This document shows, piece after piece, positions 48,082 to 64,000 of a DNA stretch of 64,000 bases (position 1 is its first letter; each line of letters starts with the position of its first letter). The notes below the pieces were generated by a model that did not search any database, had not been told where the DNA came from, and saw only the letters and a list, made by a program, of their open reading frames with translations. This stretch comes from Lingula anatina (Eukaryota; Animalia; Brachiopoda): NCBI GenBank assembly GCA_051362555.1, contig CM120640.1:12958001-13022000 (forward strand), read 5' to 3'. The translations under genes were made by a program, and so were the position numbers.

Positions 48082-49477
48082 ACTTCTCTCAAATACAAGT
48101 TAATTTTCATGATAATGCTCTCCGTGTATCAATTTTCATCAACGAGATTGAATTAAGCAAATTATCAATGAAGATCCAAGTCGAAATAATAAGGCCTATG
48201 CGAAGACAATTTCACTCACTCGCACAATAAAACAAAACACAATTATCGGTTCCAGCAATTTATTCCAATAGGAAGCCTCCATTTGTCTCTATAAAATTTG
48301 TTTCACGTGATCTCTAGATAAATCTGCATAAACCTGCTCTTCAGATTACACTCAGGTAAATTTTATAGACGGTTAAACAAACTGGCAATATCCAATCGAA
48401 TTATAACTGTGTTAGCATAAAGTGCTAGTATATAATATAGAAAATAAGTAAATACATGATCGCTAAAAGCAGTAATCTAAGGATCGCCCGTTGAACATTT
48501 ATTCGATTTGAACAGGCTGGCTCTACAAGTTGCTGGGTTACTTATAAAGCATACTTACTAAGCCAGCTTTTTGCAAAGGGAGCGTTTCATTAACATAGCA
48601 GCAACCTATAACCAGTCTACTAGCCTTTTTTATATTTTCATAAACAAATGTATGGATGAAATATACACAAAACTACCTGCTACAGACACTAAAGTCAAGT
48701 CATTTCTACAGGACTATACAAAGCATGTAAACAATCACCTCAGTCTTATTCTAAGCCACTTTTGCATGATTTATCTGTACATAATGGTTTATCTGGGCTT
48801 GGGTTCAATCGGGCTAGTAAATACATCAAGGCAGTCCCGTGAAAGCTATCCAGTTGTTGGTTTGTGGATATTGCCCAGAGCTATCCATCCAATTATATAT
48901 CTCCTTGTTACTGAGATTTTCCATCGCATTTTAAATACATAATAATAAGTAGAAGGTACAAAGAACCAAAGTTTTTGGACCACTTGCAAAAATTGTCCTG
49001 TCTCTTAATGTAAAAGAAGAAGAGTTTCTTATGAGAGGAACCTGCTCAAAAACCCGGTTTGCCAGCCAAACCACGTTGAGGGTACTTGGGAAGTGCCCGC
49101 CAGGTGTACACTGTCAACACATACACATCTTCCTACTATCACGGCAGCCCTTCTTTCCAGATGGAAGCATCTAAAGATACATACTGCTATAAGCTCTATT
49201 ATGAAGAAGAAGACCTGTACACCATATAACAAGTACCCCCAGTTGCTTTGGCTAGCATATAGTTTGCTAAACCGCTATATTTGCCAAGAACAAGCTGAAA
49301 GGATTAGAAAATACAATATTCCCGAACTGGTTGTGAGAAATGTTACCACATTAAGTGGTCAAGTAGTCTTCCATGCCATCATTGTGCATAAAATATTCTT
49401 GTTGCCGTTCTTGTCACCAAGTTTTTCTTATATTAAATCTGGTATGAATGTTGACTTGTGTTAGAAATGTAAAACTT

Positions 49478-49560
49478 TTAATAACCAGCAAGTTCAGTAA
49501 AGGTTGCCTCAAGCTCTGCACTAAGGCTATTTAATTTCTCCTTCTCTGCTTCCAGTTCCC
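49478..49560 (-). CDS. Tropomyosin terminal coding exon 9 ([27 protein letters not shown])
   Basis: CAG acceptor, phase 1, typical invertebrate C-terminus; minus-strand AATAAA at 48498-48503. Confidence 0.93.
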
Positions 49561-52500
49561 CTGCAAAGTGGGAAAAAACAAAGAAATTATTAGTGATGAT
49601 ATAAATAAGTTAATTAACATTAAAGTTTATTTTTTTCTGTCATGAATTACAAAATTACTAAATTCTTTTTTGTATCACGTCTCGTTTACTGAATTTCCCA
49701 AAAATTCAAAATGACTCCAATCTTTTTACATACTTTCTACAAATTACATGACATAACTGCTACTTTTGACATAAAAAGGAATCTGTAGTAATATATGATA
49801 ATAATTTCTTTAAAAAGTATCACAATTATAAGACAGAAATGAAGGAGTGCAGGTGAGTTTGACAGTAACTGACACTTTGAAGAGGAATTGATAATGAGAC
49901 ACATGTCCACGTAAAAAATGTGAATTAAAGAAGAAAGCAACATGATGGAAAATAAAAACAAAATGACAATATAATAGAAAGTATGAGAAATGACAAAATA
50001 ACCTAACCTGAAAAATTGCCAAATAATATCTTGACAGATGAAAGAATTGGGTTGGTATGTACAAACCTTACATGTCCCTCCTTAAGGAAATATCATAACT
50101 TTTACAAACCTTTAATTTCTGGGTCAGCAAATTCAATACCAGGAATTCTTAAAGGGATAAGAACTGTTTGTATAAGATTCTCATTTCACAAACATCTTAT
50201 AGAAATATGATAAATTTCTTTTTTACCACCTAAACCATAGACGGCAATACTTCTGTAATAATCTCTTAAATGATTATTACATACACAAAAAACTTTTTGG
50301 AAATAAAAACAATGTACTGATTTTGAATGTTGGAATGGATTCATGAACTATTGGCACACATGGGAAATTTTCATTACGCCAGGAAAATGTTTTTTTTAAA
50401 CCAAACAGTTGATATCCCTTTCAGAGAGATGAAGTGTGACAAGAGGCATTCATTTTGAGATTAGAGGATCATTAATGCAGCATGCTGCAACAGGTTATGT
50501 AAAGACCAACACAAGTAAGAGATTTAAAATAAAGATTCAATGCCATGCAAGGTTCATGCAGTACCCAACATAACTTACAAATATGACAAAACCTGACCAT
50601 TGTTATCAAGTCCTTATGTGACTGAATGCAGCTTGAGGTGCCATAATAAAATTCGAACAAGAATATATACCTCTCCCCTCCTCCCATCTTAACTCCCAAT
50701 TGTATATATTGAGACTCGAGGTAGAAAATTTCACCACAATTCAATTGGCTCTATGAAATCTGGTTAGAACCAGTCAGATAAGATATGTGTATAGAATGGT
50801 TTATACCACTACCAAACCTTTCAAGGTAAGCTAATAGACCAAACCTTGAGCTCTGCCAAAAATAGCACAGAGAAGGCCAGGTGTATAATGCCCTACTAAT
50901 ATGGTGGTCGGATTCCTATTTTAGTAAATCAAAGGATGGCTTTGGCTGCCTAGCTGCATTCATGTAGTTGTGCACACCCGAAGCTGCAGAAAACTGGACA
51001 AAATATTTCTACTGCTTCGGTTGGACTTCATCTCTTACCCAACCCCTTATTGTTAGGTGAACCTTACATGGATTACAAAACTAACAAAAAACCATTTTAT
51101 AGCAATATCAGTTTGACTTATTGGTACCAACCATGTCATTCACTATGCAAGTTTCACATTGTCGCAATTTCTGCGAAATAGGCGTCCATTTCATTTCTAA
51201 GCAAGGCGGTTTGCTCCTTCTCTTTTAGCAATTGGTCTGAAGAAAACAACATGCAATAGGGTTCACGTCAAGTGAGATCACGCAGCAAACAACCCCCAGG
51301 ACCCTGCAACCTTTTCCAAAACATAGTCCAATGAAGTATAGGACCACTTATGTTTACACTCAGGTTCCAATTCTCAAAAGCATTAAGAATACCAATTGCA
51401 CGTATTCCCAAAATCAATTCTACACTAATAAATTTCCAGACTTCAATTTCATTAAATATGGATAAGTTGCAAGTTCTTGGGTTAACAACAGTAAAATCAT
51501 GCTTATAAGTTGCAAACAATTTCAATGTATCAAAATGCAAAAGTAACAGTATCAATCAACACTAATTGCAAATAACTACTAAGTTGAAAAGTGAACAATC
51601 TATATCAGAAAAGCATTCACTGTCCATGAACAAGTAGCCTGAGGTGAAAATGAAGAGCATGTGAAATCAACAGCTGTGGAAAAAATAACTGCAGTTGTGA
51701 AATCAACTACCATTACAGCATTTTCTCCCTCAACTTTCACCATCAGAGTATCAGAAATCACATGATAAACAATACAGCATCTCCATTCAAAGATGGATGT
51801 TCAAATTAGCAGAACAGGGGAAAAAAACTACAGGGTCATGGCTGCCATTTTGTTGCTCTTTCTGTCGAGGTAATGGTGGCTTTAGAGAAGGATATCTAAT
51901 TGTTAGTATCAGATGTTCTTATATGACCGAGCTCACTCTAACAATGTTTTGGCTCAAGTAAAATAGTTCAATTTTTATTCAGCAAGACAAAGTTCATGAA
52001 ATGAAAATTGCAGTTATGGTTACAGAATTCTATTACTTTTTATTTCATCCCAAAATATTATTTTCACCATTTGTGAAAACAATAGAAGCTAGTGTGACCT
52101 CGGCATACCTAATACTCTACTTTGTCAATTAAACTACCATACCATGTGTGTCTTCTATCACAATCCTGGGCACACCTCCTGCACACTGACCCACACAAAC
52201 TCCATACAATATAAACAGGCCACATTCATGTCAATATTAACCCACTTCACACAGGCCATGTCTACTGCATTGGGGAAGGCAAGAAGCTAAACCAAAGTCT
52301 TACTAGAGCAAATATGTCCAGTGTCTGGTACATTAGGCAAGGTATGGGAAACCATTCAACTGCTGAAGTCTAGACTTTCTTTCTTCTGAGCAAAGAGATA
52401 TCACAATTTCACAATCTTTTAAAGAGGATTAGCTTTTTTAGTGTCCATTCCCTTGTTAACTAAATGTTGCACAGTTGTGATGCTTTAAGGGAAATTGTCA

Positions 52501-55500
52501 CTTAACTCTAATGTCACAATGGGGAGCCACAATTAATGCTTGGTTTCAAATTTCAAGTTTTTATTTTGAGGGGTCATCTACTGTGCTTGCTTTCTTCCCT
52601 TATCTCTTACAACTTTTCCCGCCTTTTTCTATTTACCAGACTTGACCCTGCAATGGTAATGCAATGAATGATCTGAACCTACAGTAAATTTACCCTGGAC
52701 TTATACCTTTACAATGACAGGCAAATATTAAGGTGCTTCACTCACTCCTTTAATCTCTGTGTACGTAGTGTACACTAAAAACATTCCCAATCCTTAAGCA
52801 AACACAACCCAGACCAATACAATGGCTGGGACTACTTTCCTCTTTATGTGACCAAAACTGAATGAAGGCAAGTCAGCAGACTGTTATATGCAATCTGTAA
52901 CTGTAAAAGAGAGCTGGGAGATAAAAATCTTCAAGACTGGAGATGTAGAAATCTTAAAAGGCTTGCCGCAGCACTGAATTCAATATAGCCATTACCAAAA
53001 CCTAATCTGATCTTTGGGAGTTGCATCATAGAGAAAGTCCAATGCAGAACCTCCAAATTTAAGTACCACCTCACCATTTCTATAACATTTCTATCAGGCG
53101 ACACACCAAGGTTATCATTTATTTGTCAGATAATATGTACTTCCAAAAACATATCTTCTACACATCCTTGGCCTATGTTCATCATGATAAGATAGGGCCT
53201 AACCAGCAGCCTGCCCACACTGCTCTATCTAGGATATAACGGGCATTCTCTGAACACACGCAGGGCTATATAAGGAGGGGAAGTGGGACTGTAGGCTTAC
53301 ATCACATTTTAGCACAAATGAGACGGCAAATTCGAACTGTGAGCATAACAGTAAATCTAAAGCTAAACACAAGCCCTTTTCTGTCTTAATTTCTCCTGGT
53401 TCAAAAAGCCTTAACTAGATTTTCGCCGATGCAAATAACAGATGGTGTTCATTCAGAGACATGTTATATTTAAGACAGGATGGAAAGCAGGTTTACCCTT
53501 TCAACCTGCAGGTAAGACTGCCAAAATGTGGGCTTTTCCATTGCCTTTACTGCCTCCCTCTTCTCCAATCCACTGACTGACTCATCTTCCTGACCTTTCT
53601 TCTACCCCCAGCAGAGAGGCCGATAGACAGGCCTGTGTAAAAATACAGCCCACCTATGGTTCAAGAACCTGGAAGCCTGCCCACATAGCAAATTGAAGCA
53701 CAGGTTCCTGGTGCAGTTTAAGTGTCAGAGCAGTATGTGGAGTCTTAGAGTCAGACATCATCTGGCATAGCTGCCCCCATTCTTGTTCCCTTCTCCATAC
53801 ATAGCATTTATACAAACAGGCTCAGACTGTATGGGATTCAAAGCAGTGGGAAGAAACCAAAATGAATTTTTCTTTGCAGTTTCTGTGAGGGCTATCGAAA
53901 ATTGGAAATGGGAAAAGTCCAGGATACCTATCTGCATCTAAACTTCTACATTTGGGTTCATCCTCTAATTCAGACAAACATTCACACATTAACAAAATCA
54001 GCTCTCACAATTCTCTCAGTCCACAGCAATGTATAAAATACAATTCAAGAACCTGGAGTGAAAGTGGAACACATCTGGAATGTGAACAATTAGGCAATTT
54101 TCAAATTATCTTTCTCCAAACATGCCTTCGGAAGCAGTTACCAAAACATCAATTTCATTTTTTTCTTTAATCTTGCCAATTTTGGTTCTCTTCAAGTTCA
54201 TCATAACCTCAAAGGCTTCCAGATATGTTGTTTCACAGCAACTCCCGGCTTACCTTCTAAATTCTCACACTGTTCTTTCAACCATTTCACTTCTTTATCT
54301 AAATTCTCGGCCCGTTGATCAGCCTGCAAGAGACTTACTAGATCAGCAAAAAAACCATCACAATGCAATCCACATGCACATGCCAAACAGCTGATGTCCA
54401 CCCTGGCAACCAAAACAAAGCTATTGCCATGGCAGCAACAACAGCTTCTGAAACACCTGAAACTCATTAGGTCATTGTTCTTGTCCTTCATGGTCTTCAT
54501 CTGTTGCATGCTATCGAACCTGTCCTTGCTTTTCCCCATCAGCATCAACATACTAGGCTTCTAAATGGTGAATAATGAAAGGGCTGAGTGAAATTGGTAA
54601 CGGGGGAAGGAGGGGCATAATATGTGACCTGGAAATGGCAAAGTGTGATTTTTGCATGGCAACACACAGTTTTCATGCTCATACCTTCCAAATTATCAAC
54701 ATCTTTCTGGAGTTTTGCCACTGTCCTCTCAGCCTCACCAGCACGGTGTTCAGCCTACATAACAGAGATAAATACATGTATTATCATGAAAAGGTTACGT
54801 GTGGTGTACACATGGAAGGATGGAGACACAGGAAGCATGCTGTACATAAGGAAAAAAACATCCAAAACCACAACGCTAGGCTCACGCTAGAATGATTTTA
54901 GTTTCAGTTGAAACACAATAGCCATAGATTGATTTTTGAAATATCTATTGTACTTGGGTTAAAAAAATTAATTTCCCATCTTACTTCATCAATATGAATA
55001 ACTCTCATTAATAAGCAAACTAGAGTGAGCCTAGAAAACCCATGCAAATGTATAAGGCAAGTCATGAATCTGTGAAAATCTCCTCCCCACACTCTACTGC
55101 CTGCATGCACATAAGTTCCTCCATGCCTGCCCAGTAACTATGGGCGTAGCCCCTGTGCATTCACTTCTGTCTCATACTGCTGGTGGCGGGCAGTCTGCAG
55201 CACACACAAGACCCTGCCAAAACAACTAGGTTAAACTATATGTACATGTCAATTTGCATGCAATTTGCAAGGTAAATTAAACATTGTGCAAGACTTGATC
55301 AGGCCAGATTTTTGTATTTATTGGTTTTTTTCATTAGTGCTAAATGTAGCAGCAATTGTATTCATATTTGTAAACCTGAATCATTTTCATCTTTCAAATT
55401 ACAAATGCAATTTTTAATGTACTTGTAGTCTTAATAACTGGCTTGAACACAGACAATGAACTGGTGCATCCCAACACAAGTGTGAAATGACTAAATCAAA

Positions 55501-58500
55501 GTATAGGCAATTTTTCATCTAATTCTTCTCAAACTACACTGGTGTATAGACAATCAACAAAACAATACAAATAGGCACACAAACAGACAAACAAATAAAT
55601 ATACAACATAACTCCATTATTGCCTGCAAAAACATGTTATATATATTTTTTTAAAAATTCATCCACAACATTCTACATCAAAAATAATTTTTGAAAAGCA
55701 CAATATTCCAAGTAAGATAGCAACATTCTTTATTTTTTATCACAACCAAACAAGCTGTAGCATGCGGTGTTTCATCCTAGTCTTTTCACAATTTAAAATA
55801 ACACAACCAATTTTCCATCTACTTTTATGAGCTATCATCATGCTCTCTTTTCTGTCCATGTTTAATCCCCCTACCCCAATTACACCTCAATGACTTGTAG
55901 TCTGAAATTGTTGAAAAATTTTTATTCACCGATTTTAGTCATTACTTTAAAATGTCGATATTTTAGCCAATCCCATTATACTGTGCTACCCATACTGTAC
56001 TGTACTACCCATGTAGTCAGTTATGCACTAACATTGTTATATGAAGCATGCAGAGAGATCAGTTCTGATCACAAAAATTAGTGCTGCCAAATAGCAGTGT
56101 ACACATACCTCCTTTGACCTGGCAGTTAAGTCACGGATTGTCTCCTCATAGCTGTCTTCTCTCGCTGAAGCCTAGAAAGTGAAAAGGAAGCAAAAGAAAA
56201 TTACATTAATCATTTATCTCTTCTTTTTTCCTAAGAAAAATCTGTTAACTTCACTTTGAAAATTTATGTAAGAAATGATAATTTTACCCCAAGGCAATAT
56301 TTTTCTTCTTCTATTCTTTTTTGACATGTTCACCAACATAATCTTTTCCAAAAAAAGACAAAGTGATGCAGCCAAACATGGGAACATTGCATAATATCAG
56401 AGACAAAATACGGTATGCTGAACAATTAAATATATATGTACATCCATGTCAATATCTAGCTGAATATTATGATAATATAGGAATAAAAGCGGGGTAATAT
56501 TGCTAATAATCACTTTGGAATCTTTCATCTCAACAAAATGCCTTTGGCATTTGTGTCCTTTGTGATCTCCAAAGTGACAGAACCTAAAAAACTACCTGGA
56601 TTGAGAAGTAGACCAGATGGGGGAACTGCCCAAGCTGTGATAAGAGTAATGATAACAGCACTAATACAAACCAAAGAATAAAACATCATAATCATGTTAA
56701 TTTCTCAAGTACTACCTATATCCAGATAACAAACAGATGGGTTTTTGTTAGGGAGCGTGCACTTTGTTCAAGTATGAAGTCCAAAACACGAGGATGGTTT
56801 ATCCAACATTTGGAAATAGAGAAATAAAGTGCAGTTTTGACCAATGCTACAAGAGCATTGCAAAATCTAGTGGGATTTTTCTCTTTTCTTTTTTCTTGTA
56901 CTGCCATGCTAAACTTACCTGCAAAAAACTGAGCTTCTCCCACAATGACATAACAAGAGAAAACTAAGCTGCATATGTTTGTGTGTATTGTTGTCTTCAT
57001 GTGTTCATAACAGGAAACTACAAAGGTTCTTACTTTGCCAAATGTCTAAAATATGCAACACTAATGCAAGCACCATGCACTATACTGAAGATTAAGAGGC
57101 AATGTCTTCCCAAAGTTTTTAAGCAATATCAACATGCTGTGAACAGGTTGTATTGATTCTGTGTGTGCAGTAGAGACCGAGGTGTATGGTGCAAGAAGTA
57201 TACTGTGATAGTTTGACGTCTTTTCACTAGGATCTCCATATGTAACCACGAGATGTGCAGCATGGTTGGACTGTTGCCTTACTGGTCCAAGATCCATCAA
57301 CCAGATAAGACATGCTTTGTGATTGGCTGGTGCACCACTGTACGGTGACACCTTGCACGTGACATGCTTTGCGATTGGTTTGGACATCTCTGTACTGTGA
57401 TGCCCTGTATGTGACATGTTTTGTGATTGGCACTGTACTGTGACAGGCTTTGTGATTGGTATGAACGTCACTGTACTGTGATGCCCTGTATGTGACATGC
57501 TTTGTGATTGGTTCAGACACCACTGTGCTGTGATGTCCAGTATGTGACATGCTTTGTGATTGGTTCAGACACCACTGTACTGTGATGTCCAGAATGTGAC
57601 ATGCATAGTGACTGGATGGCACTCCATAATCACGCCATGCAAAGTCACAACTAGCTCAGAGAAATGTTTTTACCTCCTGTTCACTGATTTCAAGAGATTT
57701 CATGTTGTTGCCCACCACCTTAAGCTCCTCCTCCAGCTCAAGGATCTTACTGTAACAAAGCAATCAAGGAGAGAATGGAGAAATGAAACAAAAGAGAAGC
57801 AAGAGCAGTACTACAGCAGCAGTGACAATGCCGGACTAGAAGAAATGAATAAATTCTTGCCAGACAGCTAGTCACTTAGCTGTTAGCTGTTACTAAATAC
57901 ATATAGACAGGTATATAGCCAGGTATAGGACCTGGACACATAGGAAAGCTGGGGGTACACCATCTTTGCTACTATACAGCAGGGATGATGCACCCAGTCA
58001 GTATTTTTTCTCAAAACAAAAAAGTTTATTATCTGTTCAGTATCTAAAAATCATCAGTTTCTTCCTAGCATAGGAACCCTTCATCAGAAGGATTTTGGCC
58101 AACTGGGTTGTCAGTTTTGAAAATCTGTGGACGATAAAAAAAAAAAGGAGAAAGGGGGGATAACTTTTGTTTTGAGAAAAAAAAATACTTCATTTTCCTT
58201 TGTGGCTCCAGTTCACAGAGGACACATTCACTAAAACTACCTGCTCCTCATTATTCTCAAGCGACTTCAAGTTGGCACCAACGACGTGCAATTCTTCTTC
58301 CAGCTCCTTCAATTTGCTGTAATAATGTATATAAGAACACAGTGGGATCAAAAAGGCATGGCAGCACAATGCACAAAAAGCACACCCCCTAACAAACTCA
58401 CAGTTAATATGATAACTGCACTATACTACAACCTGGGTGGGGGTTGCCAGTGGCACAATAGCCTTACCTTCTCTTCATTAATTGACAAGGACTTAAGATT

Positions 58501-61500
58501 GTGAGAAACCACATGCAGTTCTTCTTCCAATGCTTTTATTTTGCTGTAAAATGCATAACAAACACTGTTGTCATCCAACAATGGTAAGCCAGGAAAGATC
58601 AAGCATGAAATCACAGCATCATTGTTATACCCCTCCCTTCCCAAAAATCTACCAATTTGACTTTTTTAACCTTTTCATGATATACTTGATTAAGTTAACT
58701 TTAGTTTCTTTTCTGTTTTCGATAATAAATATGAATTTTACTCAAAATCTTAAAACCAGAAACACTCGTTTTCAACAATAAACATGAATTTGATCCAAAA
58801 ATCCAGAACAAGACACTACTTATTCCACATTAGTAATTATAATCTGTATCCCTCACATTTTGGATAAAAAAAGTTCATTTTTTTTTCTTTTTTCTTTTTT
58901 AAACAGTAAACAGCATTTCAAGTTCAACTTAGGTAATGAAGACTAATCACATGCATAAAAAGAATAAGTCCCTAACCATGCAGTAATTAACTTTAACTGA
59001 AAGAAATAATGCCTCTAAGCTATCTCAACTACTAAGCAAACAAAATATTCTATAAAGACAAAAACAGCTAATTTCTACTAATAATGCAATTTAATGGTAA
59101 GACAAATCAAACTAAAATTCTGATTTTTACTGAGGTAAACATTTGTAAATTAAAATTGTAAATTGAATGACAGTTAACAGACATGCTCAAAGAGGGGATG
59201 ATCTACGTAAAAATTTGGTTCTCATTAATTGAATGGGAAAATACTTTAAAAATTATGAGGTTTTAAAACATGCAGCAGATGCAAAACAAAAACTCTACAT
59301 CCCACTGTGTTCAAATATTGGAAGAAGTAACTCACGCTTCTGCATTGTCTGCACGATCTTCAGCACGCTCTAAGTCTGCTTCTGTTATTGTTAATTTTCT
59401 CGTAACCTATGTAAAATCCATTAAAATTTAAATTAAGTATTGTTCTTTTTTAAGCTATAAATCCTTAACTAAAAGACAAAGTTCTTCAAAGGATAAAGCC
59501 CATATCTTTTCCATATGATTATGACCTCACAGGATAAAGAAGGCACATCCAATCATGAATGAAGGTAACAAGAAAGAATACCTTGAAGAACTTTGTCATG
59601 TTATTACAATGCTGCTGCTTCTCTTGGTGACATGATATGCCACCTAGTGCGTATTATACACATCAAAAGCAGCAACACTGTAAAGGGAGACCCAGGGGAC
59701 AAGCCTGGACTGTCCCAAACAGAGAAAACCAGACACTAGCTGGCTCCTCGCAAAAATTTCATTACTTACGCCTCAGCAGCTTCCAAGCGAGCCTCTGCAC
59801 GCTCCAGATCAACCTCTGTGATGGCCAGCTTACGAGCAGCCTGTGCACGAACAATAATAAGATGAAGATCAAAAATTCATTTCATTTTGTATAAAATAGT
59901 TGGTGCATTTTCATTGCACACAACTTGCATATTCTCTGGACATGCTGTGTAACTGTAGGTCTCATGCCAAAATTTTCATGCAATTTAATTTTGTTGTGTC
60001 GTTGACTGGGTGAAATTTCAAAAACAGTACAGGCTGAAAACCTGCGAACAGTCAGGCTGCTCTCATGCTGATGCAGTTTCACTCATATTTATCACATCAC
60101 TTCAAACAATGCCATTCTCTCTTCTCAAAGGCTGCTATCACTACATAACCATGATCCTGCAAAAGGTTTTGATATTAATCCCCAGTTACCCTCCCACCCC
60201 ATTTCCCTAGCACCTTTGAGCAGAGAGAGTACTTGAACTATTTACTCTTCACAAAGAGCAAATATAAGCTCAACCTCCCTGTAAACAATCTATATGTCTA
60301 TGCCAATTCTTAAGACAAACAATATAAATCTTCAATGCAGTCATTGAAAAGTGAAGAGTGAAGGTGAAGTCTAGTTCAATAACACTATTGAAATTTGGTG
60401 AAAAGGTATAATTACCCACAAATGATCATTTCCTTTTGACAAGTCTCAATATTTTAACAACATCACATCAGCAATTTAATTCAATATTTACCCGAGCCAA
60501 GAAACAATGACCATTTGTGTGTAAATTCACCCTTTTCTTTCTAAGTTCATCCTAATCTACATTTCAAATTCCCTACAGACAAGTCATTCTGATTTCCCTA
60601 ATAATGTCACCAAAGGTCAAGAGGTCACTATGACACTTCTCAGGGCCTGTAGTAACCCATATATATGGTGAGAATATGATAGGGCTGCTTGCTGTTTGTA
60701 CAGGGCCACTGATTAGGATGCTTGCCTTTACAAAGCGGTCCAGTCCGATTTGTGTGGTAACAATTCAAGTGAACTGTTGTAGAGATGTGTCTAGTAAATA
60801 TTGACATTTTGTTTATAAGCATTTTGAAATGTCCATTAATTTCATTTTCTTCAATGTCAAATTTGTTGCCAGTTAGTATAAATTTTGAGGTTATACTTTT
60901 AACCTCCTTAATAGCTTTAGAACGACACAGAAGTTATGATTACAAAAGGCCCCACAAAGCAGTTCAGAATGGTTTGTCTAGATGAAAGGAATTCAAATAA
61001 AAATGAGGCAATGTGACTTCTGTATCTACATAAGGTAATTCATCAGATTCAATTATCATGTTATAACCAAGCTACATGCTAAAGTCAAATAAAAAGCACT
61101 TCAAACAATGCCATATCATAGTTGCATAGGACATTATATGAAGTGCAGAATGAGAAATGAGGCTCATCATCATCAGCAGCATGGTGGCGTCCCCGAGGGG
61201 CATCTCAAATGGCTCTTGATGGGAAAGATGAACCTGTTTTAAGAAGTCAACATGCATGGTTAGTGAACACCGTAATGTATTTTGGGTTAAATCAAGTGCA
61301 CTTATGTTAATAAGAAAACAGTTGTATGTAGGTGTGGTGATAACAGCCTGGAAATGGCAGACTTCAAAGGCAATGCTATGTGGCTGAAATGGAATGAAAG
61401 GGAATTCAGGTTCCAGAAAAAAACACTGCAATTGTTCAAACCATAGCAGCATCCACATGCAGTATGCACAAAAGGAGGCAGAATACTTTTGTACTTCTTT

Positions 61501-63676
61501 GTACAGAAGAGAACAAATTTCTTCAAAGCTTTTTTTCAAAGTACTCTAACAAACAATCCAAATTATTACCAGTCTCTTGTAAAGATATGAATATCTTCAA
61601 CATGAAGCAAAAACTGGCTTCACTCAAGTATAAGCAATAGGTCTTAAGAATGAATGAACATGCTACTGTCATTCTATTTCACAAACCAGGGCGAAAAAAC
61701 AAATCTAGGCCAACAAAAAAAGGCAAACCACGCCAAACAAATATATTATCCAAAGTCATGCAACCAAGAATCATTATCTAGGCGAGATAGTACAAATGAT
61801 AGCTTATGCCTCATACTTTCAGCCAGTAAAAAAAAACTGCCATTAATCTCTAGAGAGACATTATGCACATTGAGAGGAAAGTGGCTACTTAGCTTAAAGA
61901 GGCATAGTAGATTAACAAGACTTTGTCATACAAGTACATTACAAATACTTCTGAAGAAAATGGGCACTTTACTTAGAAATTTATGTTTGAGAAATGAGAA
62001 AAACTGATTTCAATATAACTGTACAGATCATTGTCATGAAAATAAATCAGTTTCTGCCTAGATAACTTCTGAGAGTTTTTACTTATGGAAGGAGGGGTAA
62101 GGGATTCAGGGAAAGTTCACCTCATCATATTTTCTATCGGCATCTTCAGCAATGTACTTGGCCTCCTGAAGCTGCTTCTCCAGCTCAGCAATACGCTCAT
62201 CATCAGTCATGGTACGGTTTTCCAGGGCTTTGCGACCTCTAGCAACGCACACAAAGAAGTAGGAGGTAGAAGTAATAAAGAGCCAACCAAAATAACATAA
62301 TAGGTTGTACAATAACAATAACAGGAATGACAATTGCAAAATAATAAATAAAGACATAGATACACCCACTGAAACTAAAAAAGAAAGCACTTGTGTGTTG
62401 AGGAGCTGTCCAAATAAAAAAGTGCCATTGATCAAGCCACCTAAGTGACATTTAGTATGGAGAGGGCCTAAAGGGGCAGGGCCTATACCAGGTGTAAGGG
62501 GGGGGGGGGGGGGGGGGGGGGGGGAGAGACAGAGGATGAGCTACCAAGTCTCAACATGCCTAAAGAGTTGCCTTGGTGTTCACCTCATCAAATTTACGGT
62601 CAGCATCTTCAGCAATATATTTAGCCTCCTTCAGCTGGGCTTCTAGGGTCTCTATTCTTTCATCATCCTGCTGTGTCCTGCCCTCTAATGCTTTACGCCC
62701 TCTGGTGGGACACAAAAGAAAGAACTGTGAAAAACCCAAAGGCAGGAACAGACACTTGCCAGAACAGAAAGTGGCAGTTAATCAAGTTGGACAGAGTAGA
62801 GCCATTGTTGTTCTTAGATCAATAAAGGGGATTGGGGGGAAAGGAGGGTTGCCACTTGGGCATATTAAAATGACCCTTCCAGACATGTGCCTCCAAAGCT
62901 GTTAACCTAAAGTGAAAAAAAAACAAAAAACACCTGAAATACAGAAAAGTTTTATTAATAAAAACAAAATTGCTGAAAAAGATACCAGATGCTGTTAGTT
63001 GGAGTTACCTACAAACACAGGCACATACCTCGTCAAATTTGCGTTCAGCTTCATCTGCAGTTTCTGTGGCTTCTCGAACCATCTGCTCAAGCATTCCAAT
63101 TCTATCATCATCAATATTGTTTCGGTTCTCAAGCACTTTTCGCGCTCTAGTGTAAGAAAAGATGCAAGGCTGTATGAACACACAGCAAACGTGCTAACAC
63201 AACACATGCAAGACAGTTTGTGAACAGAGAGTTTAACTCTTCCAACACGAAAAAACATCATAAAACAGATCTCCCAACTGCAATACAGACATTAAATGAC
63301 AGGACTATAAATTTCCATAAACCCAGCCCAACGAAATATCTTTACACATTTAGTGAGTCTGCAGTTTCATGTTTACATACATTGCTTCAAGCAACCCTTG
63401 TTATGTATAGGCAGGAGTGGTGATGATAATATCGCCAGGAAGATATAAACTGCTTGGTTCACAAAACTATGTGCATAGACACAAAACAGCAAGACATAAA
63501 ACAATACAAAATGCCACACTTTTTCCAATTTAAAAAGATGGCCGCGTTTGATGCATACCTCTTCGAACATTCGCTCTCGCTCTTCAGCAATACTGCGGGC
63601 ATGCTTGAACTGTTGTTCTAACTGTGCTATCCTATCCTCATCCAAATTACTTCTATTTTGCAGTACCCTGCAGGAT
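49478..63676 (-). CDS. Tropomyosin, 5'-partial (exons 4-9 equivalents), with duplicated alternative exons
   Basis: Exon sizes 118/71/76/63/70/83 match the canonical tropomyosin exon 4-9 pattern. Muscle-type path: GRKALENR...[10 protein letters not shown] / [24 protein letters not shown] / [25 protein letters not shown] / [16 protein letters not shown] / [23 protein letters not shown] / [12 protein letters not shown]. Confidence 0.96.
50153..50419. mobile_element. TTAA-type MITE copy 3 with both TIRs, in the tropomyosin last intron
   Basis: TTAA|AGGGATAAGAACTGTTT ... AAACAGTTGATATCCCT|TTCA; interior similar to copies 1 and 2. Confidence 0.75.
54254..54323 (-). CDS. Tropomyosin alternative exon 8b ([23 protein letters not shown])
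   Basis: 70 nt, CAG acceptor, GTAAGC donor; same phase as 8a and aligns to it. Confidence 0.85.
54685..54754 (-). CDS. Tropomyosin alternative exon 8a ([23 protein letters not shown])
   Basis: 70 nt, TAG acceptor, GTATGA donor. Confidence 0.93.
56109..56171 (-). CDS. Tropomyosin exon 7 ([21 protein letters not shown])
   Basis: 63 nt, TAG acceptor, GTATGT donor; only copy found. Confidence 0.93.
57309..57604. repeat. Minisatellite, about 52-bp unit, about 6 copies (one truncated)
   Basis: Unit GACATGCTTTGTGATTGGTTCAGACACCACTGTACTGTGATGTCCAGTATGT starts at about 57309, 57361, 57413, 57442, 57494 and 57546. Confidence 0.92.
57674..57749 (-). CDS. Tropomyosin alternative exon 6c ([25 protein letters not shown])
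   Basis: 76 nt, CAG acceptor, GTAAAA donor. Confidence 0.93.
58000..58189. repeat. Inverted repeat (18-bp perfect core, about 27-bp arms) between tropomyosin exons 6b and 6c
   Basis: TTTTTTCTCAAAACAAAA (58004-58021) is the reverse complement of 58165-58182; arms extend to AGTA.../...TACT with homopolymer indels. Confidence 0.7.
58241..58316 (-). CDS. Tropomyosin alternative exon 6b ([25 protein letters not shown])
   Basis: 76 nt, CAG acceptor, GTAGTT donor. Confidence 0.9.
58468..58543 (-). CDS. Tropomyosin alternative exon 6a ([25 protein letters not shown])
   Basis: 76 nt, CAG acceptor, GTAAGG donor. Confidence 0.9.
59336..59406 (-). CDS. Tropomyosin alternative exon 5b ([24 protein letters not shown])
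   Basis: 71 nt, TAG acceptor, GTGAGT donor. Confidence 0.92.
59770..59840 (-). CDS. Tropomyosin alternative exon 5a ([24 protein letters not shown])
   Basis: 71 nt, CAG acceptor, GTAAGT donor. Confidence 0.94.
62121..62238 (-). CDS. Tropomyosin alternative exon 4d ([39 protein letters not shown])
   Basis: 118 nt, AG/GT bounded. Confidence 0.93.
62498..62524. repeat. G27 homopolymer (poly-C on the tropomyosin transcript)
   Basis: Run of 27 G between exons 4c and 4d. Confidence 0.9.
62584..62701 (-). CDS. Tropomyosin alternative exon 4c ([39 protein letters not shown])
   Basis: 118 nt, AG/GT bounded. Confidence 0.93.
63029..63146 (-). CDS. Tropomyosin alternative exon 4b ([39 protein letters not shown])
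   Basis: 118 nt, AG/GT bounded. Confidence 0.92.
63559..63676 (-). CDS. Tropomyosin alternative exon 4a ([39 protein letters not shown])
   Basis: 118 nt, AG/GT bounded, same phase as 4b-4d. Confidence 0.85.
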
Positions 63677-64000
63677 CTACACCAGGCATGCAAGAAAATG
63701 ATTGAAGCGCTACCTGTTAGTGGATTCTGTACATGGATTAACATATAAAAGAAACTGTTGCGGAAAAGATCTTGCATAAATTCAAAAACAAGAAAGGGTT
63801 GATAGAAAAAAATTAACTTTGGATACAAAAGTCATACCAATACAATAAAACAGGTAGCAAGATATTAAATAATAAATAGTAAATGTTACAAAAACTTCTC
63901 TCATGCTATCCCCCTTCTTTCCCATGGTATAAATAATATGAAAACCCCGTATCTATCCAAGATCTACATTGTAACAGACTCAATAAAAGACCACTTTCAC

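Follow-up and report, generated by a model that had tools for sequence, protein, structure and literature searches.

The 64,000-nucleotide (nt) stretch of the brachiopod Lingula anatina analysed here (assembly GCA_051362555.1, contig CM120640.1, positions 12,958,001 to 13,022,000; hereafter the window, with coordinates counted from its first letter) carries the 3' part of a tropomyosin gene on its minus strand. Our subject is a 14-base-pair (bp) RNA helix, D1, predicted to join the intron that follows exon 5b to the intron that precedes exon 6b, together with two predicted helices, D2 and D3, that cross it. The window holds four copies of exon 4, two of exon 5, three of exon 6, a single exon 7, two copies of exon 8 and two of exon 9, numbered by what we take to be the lengths usual for tropomyosin exons. 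A scan of 13 exon peptides placed 10 in Pfam family PF00261 (E 0.1 or better) at the expected profile positions, and those of 8b, 9a and 9b gave no match at E 0.1. The gene is presumably of the lophotrochozoan type, and its isoforms are called muscle-type and non-muscle-type here on an assumed resemblance. Exons 6a, 6b and 6c are homologous 76-nt tandem exons, and the reading frame is kept by all six combinations of exons 5 and 6 (71 + 76 nt); the intron between 5b and 6a measures 792 nt and that between 6a and 6b only 151 nt. The exons concerned are:

59770 to 59840, minus strand: exon 5a, 71 nt, joined to 6c only in the reads
59336 to 59406, minus strand: exon 5b, 71 nt, joined to 6a or 6b in the reads
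58468 to 58543, minus strand: exon 6a, 76 nt, looped out by D1 as predicted
58241 to 58316, minus strand: exon 6b, 76 nt, looped out by D2/D3 as predicted
57674 to 57749, minus strand: exon 6c, 76 nt, looped out by D2/D3 as predicted
56109 to 56171, minus strand: exon 7, 63 nt, single copy

The elements of D1 and of its surroundings lie as follows:

59299 to 59312, minus strand: D1 5' arm, +24 to +37 after the 5b donor, first in the RNA (equivalent of an upstream docking site)
58335 to 58348, minus strand: D1 3' arm, -32 to -19 before the 6b acceptor (equivalent of a selector)
59281 to 59293, minus strand: 5b-intron segment at +43 to +55, pairing with 58544-58532 in a stem nested in D1 (-12.3 kcal/mol)
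56869 to 56892, minus strand: D1', a weaker alternative partner of the 5b arm (-15.8 kcal/mol), adjoining the 3' arm of D3

As the initial annotation had claimed, 58335-58348 is the exact reverse complement of 59299-59312. With a calculated energy of -23.8 kcal/mol, D1 is the strongest of 40 exact Watson-Crick stems of at least 11 bp in 49000-64000, and it extends through two small internal loops to -30.0 kcal/mol. Its pairing probability was 0.99 in folds of 59406-58241 and 59700-58000, both of which end before the partners of D2 and D3. The nested segment is predicted to cover the acceptor G of 6a together with the exon's first 12 nt (P 0.87 in both local folds). Adenosines at -32, the first base of the D1 3' arm, and at -16, within the helix extension, are the predicted 6b branch points (these, like all branch points given here, are motif predictions only), and the geometry proposed for D1, in which it would loop out 6a and cover the predicted 6b branch region, is reproduced by these models. 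The 5b arm has only one strong partner, before 6b; its next-best contiguous stems reach -13.6 kcal/mol or weaker, and no partner of comparable strength was found before 6a or 6c. A repeat or transposon origin of the arms was rejected, each being single in the window at up to 2 mismatches and neither lying in a tandem repeat, and so was a known RNA family (0 Rfam matches). Exons 5b (59381-59350) and 6b (58290-58259) are themselves predicted to pair in folds with D1 (27 pairs, P 0.94), and one copy of a tandem array of 52-nt period located after 6c (57309-57615) can pair with the D1 3' arm (-16.2 kcal/mol).

The argument put forward for D1 was its position beside both splice sites, and shuffling agrees with it. 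Across 27 splice-site flanks of 60 nt and 1000 dinucleotide shuffles, a 14-bp Watson-Crick stem had P = 0.008 and the energy of D1 P = 0.001; with G-U pairs allowed the energy had P = 0.005, whereas a length of 14 alone was common (P = 0.227). On the other hand, in 300 shuffles of the 5.9-kb region 54100-60000 the best long-range stem averaged -22.4 kcal/mol, and a stem at least as strong as D1 was found in 6 of 18 control strand-segments. D1 is thus unusual for splice-site flanks but ordinary as a stem anywhere in 6 kb, and it is position, not length, that is significant. These figures bear in both directions on the reading that D1 is a chance or minor feature and that exon choices are set by cell-type RNA-binding proteins, each exon separately. 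We consider this reading unlikely: the energy of D1 is near the expected best for 6 kb, but the position test (P 0.001-0.008) speaks against it, as does a sevenfold-plus excess of long stems restricted to the sense strand. In 54100-60000, 7 long-range stems on that strand reach -22 kcal/mol or lower, compared with a shuffle mean of 0.71 and maximum of 4 (n = 300), 2 on the antisense strand and 0 to 3 in 17 of the 18 control strand-segments; the eighteenth has 6, one of them very long. This last stem is an inverted complement in control segment 5901-11800 (-336.6 kcal/mol, one strand) and is unrelated to D1.

Exon joining was taken from bulk RNA of unlabelled tissues (seven runs used of nine listed, from three studies). 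The table of joints for 57620-59900 is complete and consists of five rows, namely three joints and two one-off variants of the same joints; a row requires 3 reads at 2 start points, a 1-in-100 setting may also apply, and leaks below these levels are possible. The three joints are 5a-6c (3, 376 and 211 reads; total 590), 5b-6b (43, 57 and 132; total 232) and 5b-6a (122, 29 and 84; total 235). Joints 5a-6a, 5a-6b and 5b-6c have no row in this table, where independence would predict 23.6, 46.4 and 70.0 reads, respectively, in run X17 and 41.5, 65.2 and 106.7 in run X19. The table is also free of 6a-6b, 6b-6c and 6a-6c junctions, so the exon 6 copies are mutually exclusive. A wider read set, among the 15 of 70 joints listed, gave 0, 11641, 493 and 12042 reads for 5a-6c, 39, 228, 167 and 122 for 5b-6b (total 556) and 143, 70, 96 and 33 for 5b-6a (total 342). 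Exon 5b was joined to both 6a and 6b in all seven runs, and the 6a share of 5b transcripts ranged from 21% to 79% by run. A loss of frame followed by decay was rejected as the cause of the missing junctions, because all six combinations are in frame.

In bulk RNA, exon choice in cluster 5 is strictly coupled to that in cluster 6, with 5a leading only to 6c and 5b shared by 6a and 6b. The non-independence of exon choices anticipated by the initial annotation is therefore seen in the reads, but the specific link between 5b and 6b that it proposed is not, as 5b-6a is as frequent (235 vs 232 reads in the complete table; 342 vs 556 in the wider set). In its strict form, with D1 bridging 5b to 6b as a fixed pair, that model draws on the geometry of the helix and on the finding of 6b after 5b only; it is very improbable given that 5b-6a matches 5b-6b in frequency overall and exceeds it three- to fourfold in two runs (143 vs 39; 122 vs 43), and that a partly spliced transcript of another species (L003) joins 5b to 6a. 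An exclusive 5b-6b bridge is refuted by the 5b-6a reads. The other joints among the 15 of 70 listed were 4d-5a, 4b-5b, 8a-9b, 8a-9a and 8b-9a, and 8b-9b was not among them, so that the 4/5 and 8/9 choices look coupled too, without a comparable splice-site-proximal stem. Coupling thus extends beyond the D1 region, and all of what is seen could arise from a mixture of cell types that differ in their splicing factors; D1 may help to enforce the linkage between exons 5 and 6.

Immediately 5' of the D1 3' arm, the 6a-6b intron holds the first arms of two further predicted helices, which enclose 6b and 6c and cross D1:

58370 to 58396, minus strand: D2 5' arm, +72 to +98 after the 6a donor
56744 to 56770, minus strand: D2 3' arm, in the intron between 6c and 7 (equivalent of a downstream docking site)
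58356 to 58369, minus strand: D3 5' arm, +99 to +112 after the 6a donor, 7 nt before the D1 3' arm
56896 to 56909, minus strand: D3 3' arm, in the intron between 6c and 7

D2 comprises 17 contiguous pairs plus 6 (-33.9 kcal/mol; P = 0.016 against 60 shuffles) and D3 14 contiguous pairs including G-U (-23.8 kcal/mol). Together with D1 they place three strong arms over 62 nt of the 151-nt intron, in the order of a known switch, which speaks against D1 being a chance feature. The minimum-energy fold of the 3.3-kb region formed 17 of 17 pairs of D2 and 14 of 14 of D3, but 0 of 14 of D1; a nested algorithm cannot hold crossing helices, so this competition is one in the model and not in the cell. 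A T>C difference at 56744, which keeps a U-G pair in D2, was rejected as duplex evidence from RNA editing, since its presence in 18 of 18, 9 of 9 and 1 of 1 reads looks like an allele. Exon 5a (59805-59796) has a 10-bp complement to the D2 3' arm (56761-56752; -18.8 kcal/mol) and also a 15-bp complement to the intron after exon 7 (-24.3 kcal/mol); a retained 5a could compete with D2, or the complement may be due to chance.

We tentatively favour, at slightly under an even chance, a reading in which transcripts with 5b choose between 6a and 6b by a two-way switch, of the type known from Drosophila srp, and D1 serves as its upstream stem; over all structural readings taken together, D1, whose arms are true complements, is quite probably functional. 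With D1 formed, 6a would be looped out, the adjoining part of the 5b intron would cover its acceptor, and the donor of 5b would sit next to the acceptor of 6b; unwinding of the helix for use of the branch point would then yield 5b-6b. With D2/D3 formed instead, 6b and 6c would be looped out and 6a brought toward exon 7, giving 5b-6a. The choice between 5a-6c and 5b would be left mainly to cell-type splicing factors, which would then need to keep 6c silent in the 6b isoform as well, and the resulting forms would be a muscle-type 4d-5a-6c-8a-9b and a non-muscle-type 4b-5b-6a/6b-9a. This switch is favoured because of the flank test and local-fold probability of D1, the excess of long stems on the sense strand of 54100-60000, the replacement of D1 by D2/D3 in the 3.3-kb fold, as expected of crossing helices, the match of the four-element order to srp, and the use of 6a and 6b after 5b only and never joined together.

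Known systems, as described in the papers cited, resemble this arrangement to different degrees. Drosophila srp exon 4 has four elements: the first follows exon 3, a pair lies between 4.1 and 4.2, and the last precedes exon 5. The distal exon is promoted by the upstream stem and the proximal exon by the downstream stem, compensatory rescue being reported as well (Yue et al. 2016, PMC4691838); bidirectional pairing is described there for the clusters of Dscam exons 4 and 9 as well, and the same crossing order of elements appears in Ivanov and Pervouchine 2018. The window likewise has tandem mutually exclusive exons, with one element before the cluster, two between exons in crossing order and one after, and its upstream stem (D1) and crossing downstream stem (D2/D3) are present as predicted structures; in both cases each stem surrounds one exon, and joint formation needs a long-range pseudoknot. 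Unlike in srp, the exon before the cluster (5b) is itself alternative, with the upstream arm 24 nt from its donor, the downstream stem consists of two helices and encloses a third exon, 6c, as well, and the selector overlaps a predicted branch region. Since the 5b-6a intron is also the intron before cluster 6, any upstream docking site must lie in it. The initial annotation, supported in that exon choices in the two clusters are not independent, overlooked D2 and D3, with which the layout becomes that of a known within-cluster switch.

Dscam1 exon 6 is alike in that an element just after the preceding exon pairs with one before a variant, looping out the variant between; it has one docking site and many competing selectors, whereas the window has a strong selector at 6b only, and a single docking site with a selector for each variant was not found there. 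Human ATE1 exons 7a/7b, with competing structures R1R3 and R3R4 whose pairings hinder a 3' splice site (Kalinina et al., PMC7797038), share with the arrangement proposed for the window this hindrance and a separate long-range module that sets the ratio, but ATE1 uses one shared element whose two partners lie around two exons of a single cluster, and the arms of D1 and D2/D3 are adjacent and non-overlapping. The hairpin at chicken beta-tropomyosin exon 6B (PMC9198270) places RNA structure at a tropomyosin exon cluster of homologous number, although it is local and at one vertebrate exon, in contrast to an inter-intron helix of 950-nt range. Coordinated exon choices are described in fibronectin and Caenorhabditis elegans slo-1, with mechanisms largely unknown and RNA structure suggested (PMC3728142); there too alternative events within one transcript combine non-randomly, and the window differs in offering a specific mutable helix as a candidate. 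Of what coupling of two clusters in cis by a helix would entail, the bulk reads contain the non-independent exon combinations. A literature search that took in few subscription papers and no supplements gave, among the papers listed, no report of such pairings in invertebrate tropomyosin, nor of one helix coupling two exon clusters.

Several observations weigh against the two-way switch. The D1 3' arm covers the predicted 6b branch region, and covering a branch region should, on what is established for the spliceosome, inhibit use of the exon, not help it. The spread of the 6a share between runs implies that helix strength alone cannot set it, and no stem that would remove 6c after 6b was found (P 0.80). 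A point in its favour is that none of the 40 of 75 variant rows listed falls in the D1 arms or the 6a-6b intron, compared with 19 variants of run X19 along the 792 nt between 5b and 6a (Poisson P 0.027 for finding none in 151 nt); against this, the rows listed are a part of the 75, and splice-site-proximal sequence is conserved for other reasons too. One X19 variant lies 4 nt outside the D1 5' arm, within the helix extension. The DNA run X10 spans 57620-58158 only, and neither arm of D1.

Distant orthologues came from a metagenome scan of which 80 of 195 confirmed loci were kept. Exons 5a, 5b, 6a and 6c occur together in genomic loci L001, L002, L005 and L033, and three exon 6 copies in L001 and L051, so the exon layout is old. 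A 5a-like exon was present in 22 of 44 listed rows and followed in each by a 6c-like exon, for which abundance of the major isoform may account. As further points against the switch, the orthologous introns do not align to the window; pairing of the 5b-proximal segment with the intron after 6a gave P 0.055, 0.189, 0.025 and 0.965 in the four loci (combined P 0.035, post hoc; 0.49-0.89 for the 5a-flank control); in whole-region folds, which took L001, L002 and L005 and left out L033, 0.0 pairs were expected in L002 and L005 and a different short helix formed in L001; and the D2-type test fell below 0.05 in 1 of 6 orthologues. The four loci thus give a weak signal for a helix that mostly vanishes in whole-region folds, a weakness that also favours the reading of D1 as a chance feature. 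Locus L005 lacks 6b, yet its 5b-proximal segment still finds its best partner (11 bp, P 0.025) in the intron that follows 6a. In L001, an orthologue with three exon 6 copies, the best 5b-segment partner shares 3 nt with the best arm pairing beyond 6c, in the intron that follows 6a at 2352-2370 (6a +131 to +149; P 0.055 and 0.066), echoing the layout of the window. The related L002 (1150-2620) and L005 (4990-6420) share conserved intron blocks after 5b, before 6a and after 6a, with an unalignable middle. Protein searches with the exon 4b and 4d peptides gave no match at the thresholds used, a search with the L003 5b-6a peptide returned 8 matches and no full-length invertebrate isoforms, and a scan of prokaryote genomes found no locus among 504 pattern matches.

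The missing junctions and the position of D1 over the 6b branch region also accommodate a different reading, possible though rather doubtful, in which D1 is a conditional lock in cis that wires clusters 5 and 6 together by keeping 6a and 6b silent as long as the 5b donor is not being used. The default state would have D1 formed, ahead of transcription of the D2/D3 partners some 1.4 kb further on; 6a would be looped out, its acceptor masked and the 6b branch region buried, so that a transcript skipping 5b would reach 6c only. The helix would be opened, and both exons freed, by splicing factors assembling on the 5b donor at a distance of 24 nt from the arm. A single element would in this way explain the absence of 5a-6a and 5a-6b despite the reads expected under independence, with decay of frameshifted forms ruled out for these gaps by the intact frame; D1 and its extension contain both predicted 6b branch points, the neighbouring 5b segment is predicted to cover the 6a acceptor, and in L005 the best partner lies after 6a even without 6b. 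Bulk RNA, however, mixes cell types, so that the junction pattern would look no different under regulation in trans; the whole-region fold lacks the L005 stem, the missing 5b-6c junction is not explained by the lock itself, melting of a helix at +24 to +37 by donor-bound factors is an assumption, and no such flank stem accompanies the apparent coupling at 4/5 and 8/9.

Motifs for splicing factors lend further weight to the reading in which proteins choose each exon and D1 is incidental. UGCAUG occurs in 49400-64000 21 times on the sense strand vs 5 on the other, and the 6c acceptor region has 5 UCUU/CUCU motifs, the most of 14 acceptors (1 to 3 in the others); we take these to be Rbfox and PTB sites, respectively. 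In C. elegans unc-32, according to PMC4165533, tissue-dependent regulation acts on the two clusters independently.

Beyond cluster 6, three minus-strand stems join the intron before 6a (58682-58583) to the exon 8 cluster (54797-54242):

58682 to 58667 with 54797 to 54782, minus strand: 16 bp, -19.9 kcal/mol, over the predicted 8a branch point
58642 to 58625 with 54620 to 54603, minus strand: -29.0 kcal/mol
58595 to 58583 with 54254 to 54242 (8b donor), minus strand: -22.1 kcal/mol, over a predicted 6a branch point

These stems may link 6a to 8a and 8b, and an X19 variant at 58668 lies near the end of the first arm. Elsewhere in the gene, local intron hairpins of 15-19 bp occur at 59683-59604 and 59597-59475 (5a-5b intron) and at 58182-58004 (6b-6c intron). 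Exon 4c (62584-62701) looks intact, with a depth of 3-7 in its bin, near intron level, in four RNA runs and no joint among the 15 of 70 listed. Exon 9a (51236-51132 region) extends beyond its stop codon by 22 nt, as far as a donor, and is then spliced to 9b (side at 49560) with 88, 452, 426 and 272 joint reads in four runs, so that 9b provides shared 3' untranslated sequence.

Tropomyosin genes make few of their possible exon combinations, and the locus offers a compact test of how this comes about, with strict linkage of exons 5 and 6, in-frame alternatives whose leaks decay cannot hide, and one mutable 14-bp helix. If D1 acts as the conditional lock, the choice between 5a-6c and 5b-6a/6b would be enforced on each molecule, and the stems to the flanks of 8a and 8b would extend this wiring to cluster 8. 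If the two-way switch that we favour is true, bidirectional pairing of the srp type, described in arthropods in the papers cited here, would reach a tropomyosin of non-arthropod type.

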